In this document: in pieces, positions 37,877 to 46,207 of the stretch
Numbering within the stretch: the first letter of the stretch is position 1
How the letters are laid out: every line of letters starts with the position of its first letter
Assembly: GCA_003552325.1 (NCBI GenBank)
Contig: PUKM01000007.1
Location: 1-47,124 of the forward strand
Reading direction: 5' to 3'
Length of the DNA stretch: 47,124 bases
Source of the DNA: Natrialbaceae archaeon
GTDB lineage: Archaea > Halobacteriota > Halobacteria > Halobacteriales > Natrialbaceae
Program-made: the position numbers and the translations under genes
The notes under the pieces: generated by a model
Database searches by the model: none
Seen by the model: only the letters and a program-made list of their open reading frames with translations
Told to the model about the DNA's origin: nothing

Positions 37877-38278
37877 ATGCGACGACGCGACTATCTGGCT
37901 GGTGCAACCGGTGCGATCGGCCTCGCAGTACTGAGTGGGACCTCGGCAGCCGACACCACGACCCCACGGTTTCACGTCATGGGTGATGGCCTCGGCGTCT
38001 CGATCAATCGAACGAACGCCCCGGTACAGGCCGGGGAGCGCCTCGAGGTCATGTACAGTGTCGGCAGTGGTACCGAACCGACGCGAGATGTGGTCAGACT
38101 GTTGGCGGGCGACGAAATCGTTGCGGCTGAAACGTGGGACCTCGTGGCGGAGGCAACGGTGACAGACGCGCTTCAATATCCGACGTTTCGGACCAATCAG
38201 GACGTCACGTTCGACGTGACACTGATGACCCATCGTGATCAGGATTCGACGACGGTGACTGTCGAGGCAAGCGAGTAA
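37877..38278 (+). CDS. Small Tat-exported hypothetical protein (Ig/CARDB-like)
   Basis: MRRRDYLAG twin-arginine signal; TNAPVQAGERLEV beta-rich body. Confidence 0.65.
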   Translation: MRRRDYLAGATGAIGLAVLSGTSAADTTTPRFHVMGDGLGVSINRTNAPVQAGERLEVMYSVGSGTEPTRDVVRLLAGDEIVAAETWDLVAEATVTDALQYPTFRTNQDVTFDVTLMTHRDQDSTTVTVEASE

Positions 38279-38280
38279 GT

Positions 38281-38288
38281 ACCCGACC
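38281..38288. repeat. Left target-site duplication ACCCGACC
   Basis: Identical to 39689-39696; abuts the left TIR. Confidence 0.9.
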
Positions 38289-38575
38289 GGCTTTGTTGAA
38301 ATTCTCGGTAGATGATAAGATTCAACTGCTGAATACACAGCGCGTATCTTGTACAGCGGTTATTCAGATAGCAGCCATCGAATTCGTTAGTACAGAATAT
38401 CGAAGCTACTGTCGTTTCAGACGGAGGATAGTGAGATCCCAGTCTGGTTTAGATTCATCATTGTGGAGAAGTTCATACCCGCAATCGCTTACGGTCACCC
38501 CATTCTGATGTGCCTGGCGGACAAGTTCATCTAAGGATTCCTCTAATTCGGCCTTCGAACTTGGAGACCACTCAC

Positions 38576-38827
38576 TCATTGCACAGACACGTAGCCGTCA
38601 CTACAGACTGTAACTTCGCACCCGTTGTAGGAGAAGGTCACTTGGCCTTCCTTCCGACCAGTGGTCGGCGTACTGACGAAGAGTTGGTCCAAAGCATCGG
38701 GGTCAATTACTTCGTAGAGCGGGGGAGATAGTTCCAGAGGGTCAACGCCTATTTCTCCGGCTACTTTTTTAACGACTTTGTGACATACAGTATTGACGTT
38801 CGCTGTTACGGTATTTTGGTGAATCAT
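38576..38827 (-). CDS. HalOD1 output-domain protein
   Basis: VAGEIGVDPLELSPPLYEVIDPDALDQLF...VTFSYNGCEVTV. Confidence 0.9.
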   Translation of the reverse strand: MIHQNTVTANVNTVCHKVVKKVAGEIGVDPLELSPPLYEVIDPDALDQLFVSTPTTGRKEGQVTFSYNGCEVTVCSDGYVSVQ

Positions 38828-38906
38828 TGCCCACTGTAGTCACTCACCCTTTTTAAACATATTGCTTTATTGATAATTTCCAGAGAGACTTAAGGCGGAC
38901 TGGAAA

Positions 38907-39395
38907 TTAGCCAGTGTCCCCCTCACTCGTAAACTCGTTCCCGAAGTGGTTGTACGGGTTTGTTTGTTCCTGTTTCATCATCTCCATTCGTTCAATATCG
39001 ACACCGAGAGAGTCCAAAGCTTCAAGGGACTCCTCTATGTCCTCCGACGTGCGGCCCACTACCTCCAGTGACAGATTTTCGTTGTTAGTCAATAGCTCAC
39101 GAACACTTACGATACCAGATACCTCCATAATCTCGTCCAGTATCTTCTCTCGGTCCGCGAGGGGGACTGTCGCAGTTATTAGGAGGTGGTGACCTAACCC
39201 CGTTTCACTGTACTTGATGATTGGGTGATAACCGATAATGACGCCGCGCTCCTCAAGACTGTTGATTCGATTAGCGACCGTACTGGACGAAACACCGACT
39301 TGCTCAGCCATGTCCTCGGTAGTGTTACGTCGGGCGTTCTCCTGGAGGAGATACAGTATGGCTTTATCCACATTGTCGAGTTCCTTGGAAACCAT
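38907..39395 (-). CDS. Lrp/AsnC family transcriptional regulator
   Basis: LDNVDKAILYLLQENAR...MAEQVGVSSSTVANRINSLEERGVIIGY; start at ATG 39395. Confidence 0.92.
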   Translation of the reverse strand: MVSKELDNVDKAILYLLQENARRNTTEDMAEQVGVSSSTVANRINSLEERGVIIGYHPIIKYSETGLGHHLLITATVPLADREKILDEIMEVSGIVSVRELLTNNENLSLEVVGRTSEDIEESLEALDSLGVDIERMEMMKQEQTNPYNHFGNEFTSEGDTG

Positions 39396-39688
39396 CAGTA
39401 GACTGTAGGGGTCGAAACCGGAAGTGGCTTTCCGGGGCAAACAACACACGCTGACCGCGCCGGTTGTTGCCGCGTGGTTATAGTCAATATTGAATAATAC
39501 ATCTATTACGAATAAACCGACCTGGACGATCGGAATACGGTGGAGACGAGCTTCGAGATACACACGTATAGTGAGCGGATGGTTCATCACTTTTGCCGAG
39601 AAACAAACAGAGCCGTCGTGCTGCACTAATACTCTGTATTCATCACGACGAGCGAAAAGTATCACCGCTTGAGGATTTCAACAAGGCC

Positions 39689-39696
39689 ACCCGACC
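39689..39696. repeat. Right target-site duplication ACCCGACC
   Basis: Identical to 38281-38288; abuts the right TIR. Confidence 0.9.
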
Positions 39697-39747: not shown

Positions 39748-41013
39748 ATGACACTCGATCCGGTCCACTACGACGGGATCGCCCGTCTCGCCCGACGGAT
39801 CGATCACGGGGCAGACGATCGCGACCACCGGGCGTTCGCCGACACCGTCTGGAACGACTTTCTCGACCCGCTCGTCCACGATGGGCGTGTCGTCCTCGAG
39901 CCCGTCGGCGACGTCTCGAAACACCTGGTCCCGCTCGAGGACGTTGCTCTCTGTGACCCCCCGTTTCCGACCGTCCACGGCCTCGATGCGGGCACGATCA
40001 ACCCCACGATGTTCAAAAACGGGCTCATCATCGATATCGCCCAGGCTGCGATGAGCGCCACCCCATCGGACCTCGACATCCACCGGGCTCGGACCGTCGT
40101 CGCGACGGTTCACTCGAACGATCCGACAGCACACGTCCAAGAGGGCTGGGATCGGTTCGACGAGCGGTACAGTCGCTCACGTGCCGTCAAAATCCCGCCA
40201 CTCCCCCGGTTCGCCGAGGGCGTCGTCCACGCCATCGCGCTCTACCTCGCCGAGAGCGAACACGCCCTCGAACACGCCGAAGACGTGACCGATTTACTCG
40301 TTCTCGACGGACCGCTCTATCCGCGTGGGCTCTTGCGCTGGTCGGATCAACACCCCGACCTGGCGACGTTTCTCGAGGAGGAAACACAGCCAACGGAGGT
40401 GCTCGAGAACTACGTCCGCCTCGTGGAGACGTTCGTCGAACGGGAGGTCCCGCTCGTGGGGTTCGTCAAAAACCCGGCGACTCGCGTCATTACGCGAACG
40501 GTGAAAGCGAAAGGCGCTGACGCTCCCTGGGGTGACGATTCGGCGTTTTTCACCCGCATTCTCGAGCGAGGGGAGTACGTCGACGACATCAACGGCGATC
40601 GGTGGGAGCGCGATACCGATCACCTGACCCACACCTGTTGGTTCCGCTCTCGTGGTGGCGTCGATCACCCGCTATCGATCGACGGCGACGCGTTGGGTGT
40701 CGAACGGCGACTCGAGCGCGAGGCCTACGAAGTGACGTTTTTCGTCATCTACGATCCTCGAGACGATCTCGTCTATCGGGTGGAAGCACCCTACGCGTTC
40801 GTGCGGGATGCGGGGCTCCGGAAGCGACTGACCCGACACCTGCTCCAGGAGGTGGCGGTTGCACACGGTCCCCCACAGGCCATCGAAAAGGCCGACGAAC
40901 TCGCACGGATCAGCGCCACGGAGAAACAGTCACTCCAGACGGCACTCGAGGACCAATTCGAGACGGTCACCAGACGCAATTACAACGATAAGCGGTGGGG
41001 AGACGAGTACTAG
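39748..41013 (+). CDS. nurA: DNA double-strand break repair nuclease NurA family
   Basis: HGLDAG, LVLDGPLY, VGFVKN, YRVEAP, GPP..IEKADELARI; start at ATG 39748. Confidence 0.85.
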   Translation: MTLDPVHYDGIARLARRIDHGADDRDHRAFADTVWNDFLDPLVHDGRVVLEPVGDVSKHLVPLEDVALCDPPFPTVHGLDAGTINPTMFKNGLIIDIAQAAMSATPSDLDIHRARTVVATVHSNDPTAHVQEGWDRFDERYSRSRAVKIPPLPRFAEGVVHAIALYLAESEHALEHAEDVTDLLVLDGPLYPRGLLRWSDQHPDLATFLEEETQPTEVLENYVRLVETFVEREVPLVGFVKNPATRVITRTVKAKGADAPWGDDSAFFTRILERGEYVDDINGDRWERDTDHLTHTCWFRSRGGVDHPLSIDGDALGVERRLEREAYEVTFFVIYDPRDDLVYRVEAPYAFVRDAGLRKRLTRHLLQEVAVAHGPPQAIEKADELARISATEKQSLQTALEDQFETVTRRNYNDKRWGDEY

Positions 41014-41381: not shown

Positions 41382-41650
41382 GTCCATCTATAGGTTCTCG
41401 AAACGGAAAAAGCGGCGGGTGACCCACGACAGCTCTTTCATACATCTGGAGCTCTCAACCCGCTTTGTGTCCCAATTGCCCCTCCACATCCGCTTCCTCG
41501 AGCCGAGAACAGGTGAAAGACAGTGCACGTGCGCTGTCCCGTGGCGCGTCTGGAGTCTATCAATAGCAATTCGGAGGGATCCATACACCTGGGAAAAAAT
41601 ATTCGCAACAATTGAAAAGGTATTAGTGGCTTGTTTCGCAGGTGCAATGC

Positions 41651-43903
41651 ATGGTTACTCATCCAGATCGTAACTCAGAGCACGAGTCTCAGGCGGTCGA
41701 CCGCAGCCGTCGCCGGTTTCTCGGTGCAACCGCCGCTGGCTCACTTGCCGCCATGGTGCCAGCGAGTGCGGGCGTCGTTGCGAGCGACGGCGATGACACG
41801 ATTACCATCGTTCACGACACCCACTTCCACGGCCGATTCCGTGATGCTGAACAGGACGACTTGAATATCGCCCGGTACTACACTGTCGTCCAGGACGTTC
41901 TCGAGGACGCCGAAAACGCTCTCTTCCTTGGCAATGGTGACGACATCGCACCCTCGCTGCTCGGGCTCGAGTACGAAGGCAAACACATGATCGAGGCGCT
42001 GAACTACATGGATATCGACGCGGTCGGCGTCGGCAATCACGAGTACGACTTCGGCCCCGACGTCGCCGAAGCGCGCTTCGAAGAGAGTGAGTTCCCGTGG
42101 GTCGTCGCGAACCTGCTCACCGACGAGGACGAGCCCGTGCCCGGAACCGAACGCTGGACCACCCTCGAGGTTGGCGATCTCACCGTCGGTGTATTCGGGT
42201 TGGTTTCGGAGAACTTCAAGCGCCTCACCGATTATCCCGAGGAGTGGCAGGTGCTTGGCTACGTCGAGGGCTCACAGGAAGCGGTCGACGCCTTGCGTGA
42301 AGAGGAAGGCGCAGATGTCGTGGTCTGTGCCTCTCACGTAAGCAGCGGCGTTCACTTTACGATCGCGAGCGAGGTGGAGGGCCTCGACGCCATCGTCGGT
42401 TCACACTCGGGTGTGGTCTTCGACGAGCCACAGGTGGAAGACGGGACGATCATTAGCGAGTTCGGCGACGAGTTCGACCACGTTGGATCGATTACGATCG
42501 ACAGCGATGGCGACCTCGTGGACTGGCAACGAACCGACCTGTTGCCTGACGGCTGGGATCCTAATGAGGAAGAAGAAGAGTACGACGAAATCACGAGCCA
42601 GTACGTCTCGGATATCGAGGCGGACGACGGCCTGATGGAACTCTATGAGGAGTGGCAAATCCCACTCGACGAGGAACTCGACCAGCCGTTCTTTACGAGC
42701 GAGACCGACCTCAACGGGTCGTTCGATAACTACGCCATCGAGACTGGCTTCGGGAACCTGATTACGGACGCCATGCTCGAGATCGGTGAGGAAGCCGGCG
42801 TCGAGATCGACATCGCGGCCCAAAACGGCGGCGGCATTCGCGGTGGCGAGTACGAAGCCGGTGAGATCCCCGGTTCGGCCGTCATGGAAACGCTTCCGTT
42901 CCCCAACCTAATCGACGTCCTCGAGGTCACGGGCCAGGAACTGATCGACTTCCTCGGTGATCAACAACGGGCACATCCGAGCGATCAGTTCGGAACCCAG
43001 CCAGCCATTCAGGTGTCCGGTATCTCGTATGAGTGGTGGGGTCACACCGACGACAGCACCATCACCGACGACTGGGAGCAGTACGACGCCTTCGGAGACG
43101 GTATCTCTGCGGTGAAAAACGTCTTCGTCAACGGCGAACCGGTCGATCCCGACGAAACGTACGTCATGGCGACGAACGACTACTTCCGGGAGAACGAGTT
43201 CGGCATCGATGACGACGACCTCGAGTTCCAGTCGAACGCCACGATGGGTGCGTTCGTCCTGGACGTCCTCGAGGAGTGGGGCGAAGTCGCCCCCGAACGC
43301 GAACACCGCATGATCCGTGTCGACGAGGACGTTGGTGACGCAAGCGTCGAAGACGCTGGTGACGAGGTTCATCTCTCGTTTGCGTTCCCTGAAAGCGGAA
43401 CCGAAGTGCTCGAGGACTCCTTCCGGGCCGTCATCCGGACGGGCGACGAACTCGAGGCCACCGGTGTCGACGCGAACGACGACACCGTGACCGTTTCGTT
43501 CGACGCCGATGCCCTCGAGGAACTGGCCTCGAGCGTCGACGAGCCGGTGCTCCGGGTGTTCGGTGGCTACGAGAGCGACGACGACTTCTGGGACTACGAC
43601 TTCGACATCCCCACCTCGGACGGTTACGATCACCTCAAACTGCGTTCCGGTGTCGACGACGCGGCCGTGCTCGAGGCGTTGAGTGATGAGGGCGACGACG
43701 ACGATGATGACCATGATGACGCTGACGACGATGCTGACGACCACGCTGATGATGCAGACGACGGGGTTGCAGACGATACCGACGTTGCGGGTGACGACGG
43801 CTCGCCCGGGTTCGGTCCGCTCGCTGCTCTCGCCGGGGCTGGCGGTGGCGCGTATCTCTACTCACGCGTGAAAAGTGACGACACCGACGAAGAGCACGTC
43901 TAA
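41651..43903 (+). CDS. Tat-exported 5'-nucleotidase/metallophosphoesterase with PGF-CTERM, copy 1
   Basis: SRRRFLG signal; DTHFHG, GNGDD, GNHEYDFG, NGGGIR, LPFPN; C-terminal SPGFG plus hydrophobic segment. Confidence 0.9.
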   Translation: MVTHPDRNSEHESQAVDRSRRRFLGATAAGSLAAMVPASAGVVASDGDDTITIVHDTHFHGRFRDAEQDDLNIARYYTVVQDVLEDAENALFLGNGDDIAPSLLGLEYEGKHMIEALNYMDIDAVGVGNHEYDFGPDVAEARFEESEFPWVVANLLTDEDEPVPGTERWTTLEVGDLTVGVFGLVSENFKRLTDYPEEWQVLGYVEGSQEAVDALREEEGADVVVCASHVSSGVHFTIASEVEGLDAIVGSHSGVVFDEPQVEDGTIISEFGDEFDHVGSITIDSDGDLVDWQRTDLLPDGWDPNEEEEEYDEITSQYVSDIEADDGLMELYEEWQIPLDEELDQPFFTSETDLNGSFDNYAIETGFGNLITDAMLEIGEEAGVEIDIAAQNGGGIRGGEYEAGEIPGSAVMETLPFPNLIDVLEVTGQELIDFLGDQQRAHPSDQFGTQPAIQVSGISYEWWGHTDDSTITDDWEQYDAFGDGISAVKNVFVNGEPVDPDETYVMATNDYFRENEFGIDDDDLEFQSNATMGAFVLDVLEEWGEVAPEREHRMIRVDEDVGDASVEDAGDEVHLSFAFPESGTEVLEDSFRAVIRTGDELEATGVDANDDTVTVSFDADALEELASSVDEPVLRVFGGYESDDDFWDYDFDIPTSDGYDHLKLRSGVDDAAVLEALSDEGDDDDDDHDDADDDADDHADDADDGVADDTDVAGDDGSPGFGPLAALAGAGGGAYLYSRVKSDDTDEEHV
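43793..43873 (+). repeat. 81-bp PGF-CTERM coding repeat, copy 1
   Basis: 77/81 nt identical to 46097-46177. Confidence 0.9.
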
Positions 43904-44032
43904 GCCTCCTCCTCGTCTTCCGTTCGTCCCACTCGAGACCGACACTACGATTTTCACTCACTTGGAAACGTTATTGCGGCAACGAATACTGTCACAGAAA
44001 CTATTTTCAAGACAGCCTCCTGGCTCACGACC

Positions 44033-46207
44033 GTGACACGAAAAGACACACGCTTCGATATTACTGAGTCATCAGAGAACGCGATTGGGACCCACCGACG
44101 ACGGTTTCTCGGCGCAGCGGCAGGCGGGCTCTCGATGGCCGCCCTCGGACTTGGATCGAGTACGGCAGGCGCTGAAGCCGACGAAACACTGACTATCATC
44201 CACGACACCCACTTCCATGGTCGCCTCGAGGACGATGTCGCGACCATTGCTGAATACTGGGCGTTGATTCAGCACCTTCAGGACGAACACGAGAACGCGA
44301 TTTTTGTGGGAGCGGGTGACGAGTTCTCGCCGTCGGTCGAAGGTTCGTTTTTCGAAGGCGAACACATCGTCGAGGCACTCAATATCATGGACCCAGCGGG
44401 TGTGGCCGTTGGCAATCACGAAAACGACTTCGGTGAGGACGTCGCCGAAGAACGGTTCGCCGCGAGTGAGTTCCCCTGGCTCGCGACGAATATGGCGACT
44501 GAAGACGGCGAGCCCTATCCCGAAACGGAACACTACGTCACCACGGAGGTCGGGGGACTCACCGTCGGTGTCATTGGCTTCGTGCCGGACGGCTTTTCGT
44601 TCGACGGGGCCGAATCACTCGATCTGATCGAGTCGACACAGGACGCCGTCGACACCCTGCGAGAGGAGGAAGGTGCGGACCTCGTGGTTGCTGGCTCACA
44701 CCTCGGTGGCGTCTCGCCAAAACTCGAGGTCGCCGAGGCAGTCGACGGGCTCGATGCGATCGTCGGCGACCACTATGCGACGATCGAGGACGAGCCTCGG
44801 GAGGAAAGCGGGACAGTCATCAGCGTTGCCGGTGACGAGTTCGATCATCTCGCCTACCTGACCCTCGACAGCGACGGGGAACTGCTCGAGCACGAACTGA
44901 TCTCCCTCGAGGAGTACAAAGAAGCGGAGGGGATCGAACCAGATGCGGAAATGCAAGAACTGTACGAGGAGTATACCTCGATCATTGACGAGGAACTCGA
45001 CCAGGAGATCGCCTACGCAGGGGTCGATCTCGATGCCCGATTCGACTCGAGTTACAACCAGGAAAACGAGTACGGGAACCTGGTGACTGAAGCGATGGCT
45101 CACGGGACTGATTCCGATGTGGCGATCATGAACGCCGGTGGAATTCGATCGAACCGCATCTACGAGGCCGGTCCGATTACGGCCGGCGAACTCGTCGACA
45201 CACTCCCGTTCCCGGACCCCGTTATCCGGGCGGAGGTGACTGGTGACGAACTCGAGGGGATGTTGCTCGACCGGGTATCGACCTTGCCGGAGGCGAACTT
45301 CGGTGCCCAACAGCAGATTCAGGTCCACAATATCCACTACGACTGGACCGGCATCGAAGATCGGGCGGTCGAGAACGTCCACGTCGGTGGCGAGCCACTC
45401 GATCCGGACGCGACGTACTCGGCGGCGCTCACGAACGTCATGGCGAGCATCTTAGCCGGAATACGGGGAGAAGCAGAGGCCGAAGACCAGGGTGAGTTGA
45501 CCGACAGTCCGGGCAACCTTCTGCTCGAACACGTCGAAGACCTGGGCTACCTCGAACCCGAACTCCACAACCGGATTCACCGTTTCGACGAGGACGTTGG
45601 CGAGCCGACGGGCATCGATCACGGCGACCAGCAGGTAACCCTCGAGTACCCGGTGCCGGAACACAGCCTGGGTACTCACGAGTCGACGTTTTACGCGGTG
45701 AATCAACACGGCGTTCGTATCGAGGCGACGGCCGTCGACGAGCGCGACGATGCGGTCAGTGTCGGGTTCCCATCAGGGGCCTTCGAAACCCTCGCTACTG
45801 GCGTCGAGGAACCGACCGTTCGCGTCTTCGGTGGGTTCGACCCCGACGACAGCGACGATGGGTACGCACTCGAGCGGGACGGAGACCTCCTCGAGTTGCC
45901 GGTTGCCGCTCGCTTCGATTACTTCGTGCTCCGGGGAGACGTGCCTGTCGACGAACTCGAGCTCGAGGCCCTCGAAGCGTCTAGGGATGAAACGGACGAA
46001 ACGAACGATGACGACGGCGATGGGTCAGACGACGAGAGTGATGGTGAGGACACCGTGACCGAAGACGACGTCGGAGACGACACCGCTGTCGACGATGACG
46101 ACGGCTCACCTGGCTTCGGTCCGCTCGCCGCTCTCGCCGGGGCTGGCGGTGGCGCGTATCTCTACTCACGCGTGAAAGGCGATGTGAACGAGGAACAGGA
46201 CGGATAG
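44033..46207 (+). CDS. Tat-exported 5'-nucleotidase/metallophosphoesterase with PGF-CTERM, copy 2
   Basis: HRRRFLG signal; DTHFHG, GAGDE, GNHENDFG, NAGGIR, LPFPD; SPGFG tail; GTG start uncertain. Confidence 0.9.
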   Translation: MTRKDTRFDITESSENAIGTHRRRFLGAAAGGLSMAALGLGSSTAGAEADETLTIIHDTHFHGRLEDDVATIAEYWALIQHLQDEHENAIFVGAGDEFSPSVEGSFFEGEHIVEALNIMDPAGVAVGNHENDFGEDVAEERFAASEFPWLATNMATEDGEPYPETEHYVTTEVGGLTVGVIGFVPDGFSFDGAESLDLIESTQDAVDTLREEEGADLVVAGSHLGGVSPKLEVAEAVDGLDAIVGDHYATIEDEPREESGTVISVAGDEFDHLAYLTLDSDGELLEHELISLEEYKEAEGIEPDAEMQELYEEYTSIIDEELDQEIAYAGVDLDARFDSSYNQENEYGNLVTEAMAHGTDSDVAIMNAGGIRSNRIYEAGPITAGELVDTLPFPDPVIRAEVTGDELEGMLLDRVSTLPEANFGAQQQIQVHNIHYDWTGIEDRAVENVHVGGEPLDPDATYSAALTNVMASILAGIRGEAEAEDQGELTDSPGNLLLEHVEDLGYLEPELHNRIHRFDEDVGEPTGIDHGDQQVTLEYPVPEHSLGTHESTFYAVNQHGVRIEATAVDERDDAVSVGFPSGAFETLATGVEEPTVRVFGGFDPDDSDDGYALERDGDLLELPVAARFDYFVLRGDVPVDELELEALEASRDETDETNDDDGDGSDDESDGEDTVTEDDVGDDTAVDDDDGSPGFGPLAALAGAGGGAYLYSRVKGDVNEEQDG
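46097..46177 (+). repeat. 81-bp PGF-CTERM coding repeat, copy 2
   Basis: 77/81 nt identical to 43793-43873. Confidence 0.9.

Follow-up and report, generated by a model that had tools for sequence, protein, structure and literature searches.

How does a DNA segment that encodes no transposase come to carry regulatory genes between a pair of inverted repeats, and can what it carries change once it has landed? The question is raised by a 1,400-bp element in the window, the whole 47,124-nucleotide stretch of a Natrialbaceae contig (PUKM01000007.1) that was analyzed here. A preliminary description, made from the sequence, had read this element as a transposase-free transposon delivering a HalOD1 gene and an Lrp/AsnC gene.

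Anatomy of the element

The features of the locus are as follows.

37877 to 38278, plus strand: upstream flanking gene, 133 aa, outside the element; twin-arginine-like N terminus (RRDYL), no Pfam match
38281 to 38288: left copy of the target-site duplication, ACCCGACC, identical in the conspecific contig L073
38289 to 38306, plus strand: left terminal inverted repeat, 16/18 against each end of the L059 autonomous IS5 element
38326 to 38354, plus strand: site A, with outer arm (38326 to 38336), spacer ACAGCGC (38337 to 38343), and 11-nt inner arm; starts 37 nt from the element end
38406 to 38579, minus strand: acidic ORF of 57 aa without a Pfam match; overlaps the HalOD1 stop by 4 nt
38576 to 38827, minus strand: stand-alone HalOD1 protein, 83 aa (PF18545, E 1e-23)
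38907 to 39395, minus strand: Lrp/AsnC-type HTH regulator, 162 aa (PF13404/PF13412)
39618 to 39646, minus strand: site B, an 11-7-11 dyad with spacer AGAGTAT; starts 42 nt from the element end
39671 to 39688, minus strand: right terminal inverted repeat, 16/18 against the ends of the IS in L059
39689 to 39696: right copy of the target-site duplication, ACCCGACC
39748 to 41013, plus strand: flanking nurA, outside the element (PF09376)

The boundaries hold as first described: the terminal 18-mers match at 16 of 18 positions, and a perfect 8-bp duplication, ACCCGACC, encloses exactly 1,400 bp (38289 to 39688). The interior is AT-richer than its surroundings, as had been noted, with 48% GC against 59% and 63% in the 1.4-kb flanks, and the motif CTCGAG, said to be absent from it, occurs 0 times where about 6 occurrences would be expected. 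The reported lack of a transposase was borne out as well. None of the 5 interior ORFs scanned against Pfam contained a transposase catalytic domain, and tblastn of the partner transposase (from L059, below) against the element gave no match, so neither a transposase nor a remnant of one lies inside. In a scan of the 2.33-Mb source assembly, an 8-bp direct repeat around an inverted repeat of at least 15/18 occurred five times, and the same scan on two shuffled genomes gave 1 match; two of the five genomic matches contain the end sequence of the 1,400-bp element.

The left junction is not a misassembly, because a 696-bp contig of run X2, which is a separate sample, crosses from the flank into the HalOD1 gene with zero differences. 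None of the listed contigs spans the interior to the right end, and a joint omitting the whole element was found in none of four runs. One X2 contig (side 32) joins 38351 to 39632; it may represent another element with common ends and is not used as evidence. An empty site with a single ACCCGACC, which the preliminary description had proposed to look for, was not found: the exact 20-nt flank pattern matched once among metagenome contigs, in a filled allele. The upstream flanking gene was not adjacent to nurA in any of the 13 relatives examined.

The element had been placed just after the stop of a Tat gene and about 60 bp before nurA. The stop codon does lie 2 nt before the duplication, the Tat label being a motif reading and the assignment putative, and the nurA ATG at 39748 is 59 nt past the right end. 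The suggested effect on nurA expression is unsupported: a conserved T-run motif that precedes nurA in 13 of the 13 relatives examined lies downstream of the insertion. Elsewhere in the window, positions 41642 to 46207 encode a tandem pair of large secreted proteins, of 753 and 724 aa, whose N termini are alike and whose C-terminal tails are nearly identical, and a weak B-like site was scored between them at 44247.

Both genes first described as intact, co-oriented cargo, HalOD1 and Lrp/AsnC, are on the minus strand, but a third ORF, of 57 aa, had been overlooked. This ORF is open in both related copies examined (G003 and G006; 87 to 88% identical) and gave weak leads only, with scores of 0.85 or less; we infer that it is a third cargo gene. 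Against the NCBIfam model for the disk-determining factor family, DdfA, the HalOD1 protein scores 71.3, barely above the cut-off of 70, and the Lrp/AsnC-type regulator falls under every named Lrp equivalog cut-off. In the G006 copy of the cassette (C20, L007), the Lrp gene has an early stop codon and there is no B end.

An autonomous IS5 partner

The ends had been likened to those of the IS5 family and the element called nonautonomous, and a matching autonomous partner was indeed found. The IS in L059 is 1,238 bp long with an 8/8 duplication, encodes a 273-aa IS5 transposase, and has ends that match each end of the element at 16 of 18 positions. Its transposase scores 219.6 against NF033579 (cut-off, 140) and is 92 to 95% identical to RefSeq-named ISHla2, ISHma13, and ISHxa2 and 81% identical to ISHvo2, all four of which are IS5-like by RefSeq naming. 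ISHvo2 and ISHla2 have the same ends as the transposase-free elements, which we call shells, and the 8-bp duplication is common to the 1,400-bp element, a second shell on contig C90, L059, and the surroundings of ISHvo2. The ISHla2/ISHvo2-type partner is a putative member of the ISH1 group. An 8-nt duplication is given for ISH1 in PMC7002104.

In three loci (L057, L065, and L102), an IS end and a site-bearing end lie under one perfect duplication, so the two kinds of ends appear to work with one enzyme. The autonomous IS ends examined (L059, L055, L313, and L314) have no A or B sites. The source genome, which is 67% complete, encodes only a split IS5 gene, 45 to 48% identical to the partner and without shell ends. 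The copy of ISHvo2 on Haloferax volcanii pHV4 (L313:1449-2971) is 1,523 bp long, has an 8-bp duplication, and includes an extra hypothetical gene. An AT-rich transposase region in the source assembly (G000:C77:4550-5574, L026) is unlike the rest of that assembly and possibly represents a foreign contig in the bin. ISNma1 was rejected as the partner; its ends are different, its duplication is 9 bp long, and it intrudes into the sites described below.

Shells with other cargo

A search for the pair of inverted repeats in this and other genomes, as had been suggested, turned up further copies with other cargo. A second shell in the source genome (C90:5737-6496, or L003:799-1558) is 760 bp long and flanked by an 8-bp duplication, GCTGGTTT. 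Its ends align with those of the 1,400-bp element at 88% over 58 bp and 83% over 86 bp, and it carries a 137-aa lipoprotein-like gene unrelated to HalOD1 or Lrp. Directly after this shell come another A site and a small gene of a similar kind (C90:7105). Single degenerate shell ends also occur in the source genome at C148:9223-9309, C184:14826, and C287:239; the C148 end precedes a cysteine-rich DUF326-like gene of a kind that is also cargo in G009 and G010.

The shell-end pattern was found in 96 of 120 family genomes, with 0 for the reversed control. We fetched 20 inward end pairs from the 150 matches listed of 344. In the fetched loci, 26 of 51 inward end pairs, a count that includes nested and noncognate pairs, had a duplication of at least 7/8. 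In 14 of these 26, which spanned 463 to 4,977 bp, each end had a site, in every case A at one end and B at the other; a G003 element (L156) with ends on both sides and no perfect duplication was left out of the 14. No match to the partner transposase was present in 13 of the 14 two-site shells. The cargo was varied and included MMPL, GYD, alpha/beta hydrolase, PD-(D/E)XK, PLD-type nuclease, and PQQ-repeat proteins, and the 463-bp shell had no ORF past the filter. Two shells (L061:1027-2783 and L063:999-2356) carry the PD-(D/E)XK and PLD-type nuclease genes, which are possible defense cargo.

Recombination-type sites and cassette arrays

The preliminary description took the genes to be passengers of a mobile-type element. 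The element is of that type, but its cargo is a cassette that is bounded by two recombination-type sites of a separate array system and that differs between strains. Each site is a 29-bp dyad of two 11-nt arms around a 7-nt spacer, recognized by a profile and by arm complementarity, and the sites fall into two classes with spacer consensus AGAGCGC (A) or AGAGGAT (B). Loci selected because they had such matches, 1.22 Mb in all, contained 260 sites, versus 2 after shuffling. The A site pattern was found in 85 of 110 genomes of the order (haloarchaea; control, 0), and the strict junction pattern in 25 of 151 genomes from 6 of the 11 families listed, including the source genome (C88). The C88 fragment (G000:C88:3843-4970) has two junctions, a response-regulator-like ORF, and a HalOD1-like ORF.

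Away from transposon ends, the sites occur as back-to-back pairs. Of 60 unique pairs, 55 are 37 nt apart, and 55 of 60 combine class A with class B. Among 186 unique site-bounded segments (median, 1.0 kb; 52% GC), 165 run from A to B, and the arrays take the form A-cassette-B-37 nt-A-cassette-B. Polarity was the same in 77 cases and opposite in 2, overlapping loci included, and the longest arrays have 12 to 15 junctions over 35 to 44 kb. At one locus (L217), a multisite array lies within transposon ends with an 8/8 duplication. Folding at the junctions is weak (mean z, -1.1 over 30 junctions), and attC-like hairpin folding was rejected on that score.

In G003, the HalOD1-Lrp cassette of the element is also present (86% identical), with a full junction on either side and no transposon ends, and sites likewise enclose paralogous HalOD1-Lrp pairs in G008, G009, G011, and a second G003 array. 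Nine HalOD1-like proteins from 8 genomes are encoded within 2.5 kb of a site, and a role for cassettes in the expansion of HalOD1 is plausible.

Palindromic, intergenic dyads next to AT-rich accessory genes, many of which are regulators, could be transcription factor boxes or promoter or terminator signals. We consider this highly improbable: the sites flank genes on either side, and homology breakpoints fall at them; by a crude ORF call, 80 of the 165 A-to-B cassettes have the start of the main ORF near A, 75 have it near B, and 10 have no ORF.

A second lineage of IS5 elements, of the ISNma1 type (L074 to L153, e.g., L077, L126, and L142), inserts into the sites. Of 62 such elements for which both ends are present, 34 lie exactly after the outer arm, the spacer, and one base, with a 9-bp duplication centered on the spacer, and none was found at offsets of 1 to 6 nt. 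Several ISNma1-like copies have mismatched flanks. Such elements could themselves shuffle the cassettes by inserting in the spacer, with copies that recombine or transpose intramolecularly and an IS that is later lost through its duplication; the exact targeting and the mismatched flanks fit this idea, and trace-free transposon loss through duplications is proposed in PMC3119063. We regard it as very unlikely, as it leaves the 37-nt junctions, the A/B pairing, and the recombinase clade described below unexplained, and there is no trace of an IS at the breakpoints of the 1,400-bp element, L073, or the G007/G008 pair.

Probable exchange of cargo at a fixed insertion

A conspecific metagenome contig (L073) has the same insertion with a different interior. 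Its identity to the window is 99.2% over 1,541 bp, a stretch that takes in the duplication, the left end, and the outer arm and spacer of site A; from the inner arm onward the allele diverges, with 29% identity over the remaining 96 bp, and the contig stops 152 bp inside the element. Run X5 has the same 8 flank SNPs as L073, and the two represent one haplotype seen twice rather than two observations. In X5, both ends of the element have depths of 34 and 23 and the HalOD1 stretch has a depth of about 5, contig depth being a weak measure and not a copy number. Judged from these depths, and with the right-end contig assumed to belong to the same haplotype, the L073 allele probably reflects replacement of the cassette rather than addition of another. 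A second case comes from G007 and G008, which have a common insertion site and ends around interiors of about 3.4 and 0.9 kb. At the A end the two are similar only as far as the spacer, and at the B end similarity extends about 127 bp inward.

Conversely, cassettes that are 94 to 97% identical occur in different arrays, and their alignments end within a few bases of the sites. We compared 21 breakpoint pairs, hand-picked from 106 rows and earlier comparisons. In the 18 site pairs with a common cassette, mismatches fall from 62% just outside the site to 29% in the outer arm, 14% in the spacer, and 12% in the inner arm; in the 3 pairs with a common shell, the outer arm has 0/33 mismatches and the inner arm 12/33. 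Some pairs (e.g., G010 10619 and L217 6192) have no clean inner match. Because the mismatch pattern changes at the spacer in both kinds of pairs, we place the crossover there. The spacer is also where tyrosine recombinases cut, according to PMC8371274.

An alternative hypothesis is that the element is a plain mobile insertion cassette or cargo MITE, that the site motifs are simply transposon-end sequence, and that homologous recombination or gene conversion within common ends of 60 to 90 bp replaces one interior with another. Gene conversion is efficient in polyploid haloarchaea, the shells do have 58 to 86 bp of their ends in common, the 127-bp extension at the G007/G008 B end fits this hypothesis, and many site-rich genomes have no gene for the recombinase introduced below. 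We find this hypothesis rather unlikely, however. The autonomous IS ends lack the sites; sites without transposon ends keep their 37-nt spacing and their single polarity; the contexts between which cassettes move are mismatched at 62% of the outer 15 nt; and a clade of recombinases is tied to the sites.

A candidate recombinase

Among 38 tyrosine recombinases, mostly from array-rich genomes, one family of 224 to 241 aa had sites near all four of its members. The short clade was first noticed through those four site-adjacent members, and loci of their kin are not independent of them. Among relatives with at least 60% identity, a site lies at a fixed distance upstream or downstream of the gene in 26 of 30 unique loci (the starting four are partly included), and in 20 of the 30 there are sites on both sides, arranged as A-gene-B or B-gene-A. 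At most of these loci, the distance is about 45 to 65 nt before the start and 28 to 35 nt after the stop. More distant homologues outside the clade had a site in 1 of 22 cases, and the clade itself has an SH-aLRT value of 100 in a quick tree.

The short recombinase matches PF00589 above the cut-off. In 51 sequences, R72, K131, H188, R191, W214, and Y223 are invariant or nearly so, including the HxxR motif, and there is a conserved CxC motif. The structural model (pLDDT, 82) has a confident catalytic-domain fold with XerA (5HXY) as the best match, and by length and fold the protein is without a core-binding domain. It scores 20.9 bits against the integron integrase model TIGR02249 (cut-off, 265) and 47.7 against the NCBIfam XerA model (cut-off, 220). 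From its position, we predict that the short clade is the enzyme that acts on the A and B sites.

A search for the short recombinase found none in the 67%-complete source genome or in the site-bearing genomes G001, G003, G005, G163, G191, G011, and G021; the positive controls G009, G010, and G209 were matched. A close member of the clade is present in only 14 of 138 family genomes. Arrays without an enzyme could have been orphaned from a mobile enzyme, or another recombinase could be acting on them, and both would fit. CALINs, for comparison, are arrays orphaned from a mobile integrase.

It could therefore be supposed that the sites are real recombination sites on which some other host- or island-encoded tyrosine recombinase acts, with the short recombinase a passenger or cofactor. 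The short clade is found in far fewer genomes than the A site, three long arrays (G005:C10, G010:C1, and G021) begin just after an island integrase of 373 to 396 aa, and a 335-aa family lies near arrays at L036, L154, L166, and L167, in two cases on islands beside a tRNA-Val gene. Against this, the 373-aa family has a site nearby in only 6 of 30 loci, for which reason we rejected it as the dedicated enzyme, and no member of it was detected in G003 at E 1e-20; fixed-distance sites on both sides were found only for the short clade. We judge another enzyme to be unlikely. One region of G009 (C5:1842054-1864762; L167 and L036) consists of 20 kb of cassettes between two inward-facing 335-aa integrase genes near tRNA-Val, and it contains the short recombinase.

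Proposed mechanism

Taking together the ends and their duplication, the partner IS, the grammar of the sites, the same-locus shells with different interiors, and the breakpoints at the spacer, we consider it likely that the element is a transposase-free, IS5-ended shell that is mobilized in trans by an ISHla2/ISHvo2-type transposase and whose A/B cassette is exchanged by site-specific recombination, with the short tyrosine recombinase as the predicted enzyme. Like sites would recombine, A with A and B with B. A circular cassette would integrate at A to give end-A-new-B-linker-A-old-B-end, and excision between the two B sites would then remove the old cassette and leave a shell with new cargo. 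This one reaction, circle integration followed by B-by-B excision, would explain arrays, single-slot shells, and the L073 allele alike. The IS5 transposase would then scatter loaded shells to new loci. The recombinase gene sits between an A and a B site, at the place usually taken by the 37-nt linker, and in genomes that lack its gene the enzyme would act in trans or transiently.

More broadly, we lean, by a modest degree, toward a natural two-site cassette exchange system in haloarchaea, an equivalent of integrons in archaea that is made of other components. In it, cassettes in arrays of tens of kilobases would be loaded, reordered, and replaced by a minimal tyrosine recombinase whose gene lies between the heterospecific A and B sites, IS5 shells would serve as reloadable vehicles that ISHla2/ISHvo2-type transposases move, and a second IS5 lineage would parasitize the site centers.

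Relation to known systems

Integrons consist of an integrase (IntI), an attI site, and arrays of attC sites; they include CALINs, and class 1 integrons are transposon borne. The haloarchaeal system resembles them in its polar arrays of site-bounded cassettes, a tyrosine recombinase beside the sites, arrays without an enzyme, and carriage within transposon ends. It differs in that each cassette has two types of site instead of a single attC, the 29-bp dyads fold weakly as single strands (z, -1.1), cassette genes lie in either orientation (80 versus 75 by the crude ORF call), the enzyme is encoded in the linker position, and the candidate enzyme is outside the IntI family (20.9 versus 265).

In engineered cassette exchange, heterospecific lox or FRT sites with different spacers are used, and like recombines with like. 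The likeness lies in two sites with different spacers that flank a cassette and would recombine like with like, whereas the system described here is natural, chromosomal as well as plasmid borne, and coupled to a transposon shell, and the incompatibility of A with B is putative.

In the pdif modules of Acinetobacter plasmids, as portrayed in PMC6449649, adaptive genes similarly have a short dyad site on either side. The 11-nt arms are those of Xer/dif sites, which have an 11-6-11 layout in PMC8371274; by comparison, the A and B sites have a spacer of 7 nt rather than 6, two spacer classes, and pairing across a 37-nt linker. The candidate enzyme, of 234 aa, belongs to a mobile clade distinct from archaeal XerA (47.7 versus a cut-off of 220). 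The system works like a transposon-borne integron and is built more like dif modules, and it lacks defining properties of each.

As for the shells, they have IS5-type ends rather than the IS4-type ends that MIC231 reportedly has, they occur in an archaeal host, and dedicated dyad sites enclose their cargo, which is probably exchanged while the insertion stays fixed. They are otherwise like the mobile insertion cassettes of Bacillus cereus (MIC231/IS231) and passenger-carrying IS as outlined in PMC2266710, with IS ends, a target duplication, passenger genes, no transposase, and movement in trans. Haloarchaeal IS5 MITEs of the ISH9/ISH1 type likewise have ends in common with an autonomous IS and the same duplication length (PMC3119063 and PMC7002104). 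The MITEs are described as short and mostly noncoding, whereas the shells reach 5 kb and have intact genes and internal sites that are absent from the IS.

Our literature search found no description of A/B sites or of cargo-exchanging IS5 shells in haloarchaea, and single shells may be catalogued as named MITEs. If exchange operates as proposed, this would be an apparently undescribed archaeal way to shuffle and spread accessory genes.

Implications

The model is directly testable, with short parts and a tractable host, Haloferax volcanii, that has the cognate IS, ISHvo2. A recombinase of 234 aa with two spacer specificities, as predicted here, could also serve halophile genetics as a tool for cassette exchange. 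The DdfA match raises a putative role in cell shape for the HalOD1 protein of the element.

If the model is true, integron detection based on IntI and attC would miss this cassette system, and much of the haloarchaeal accessory genome, including regulators, sensor kinases, HalOD1 modules, lipoprotein-like proteins, and nucleases, would consist of exchangeable cassettes. HalOD1 reaches up to 49 copies per genome according to PMC5847659. Cassette exchange would offer a mechanism, open to testing, by which genes turn over rapidly in hypersaline populations, and some of the HalOD1 expansion may perhaps be traced to it as well.
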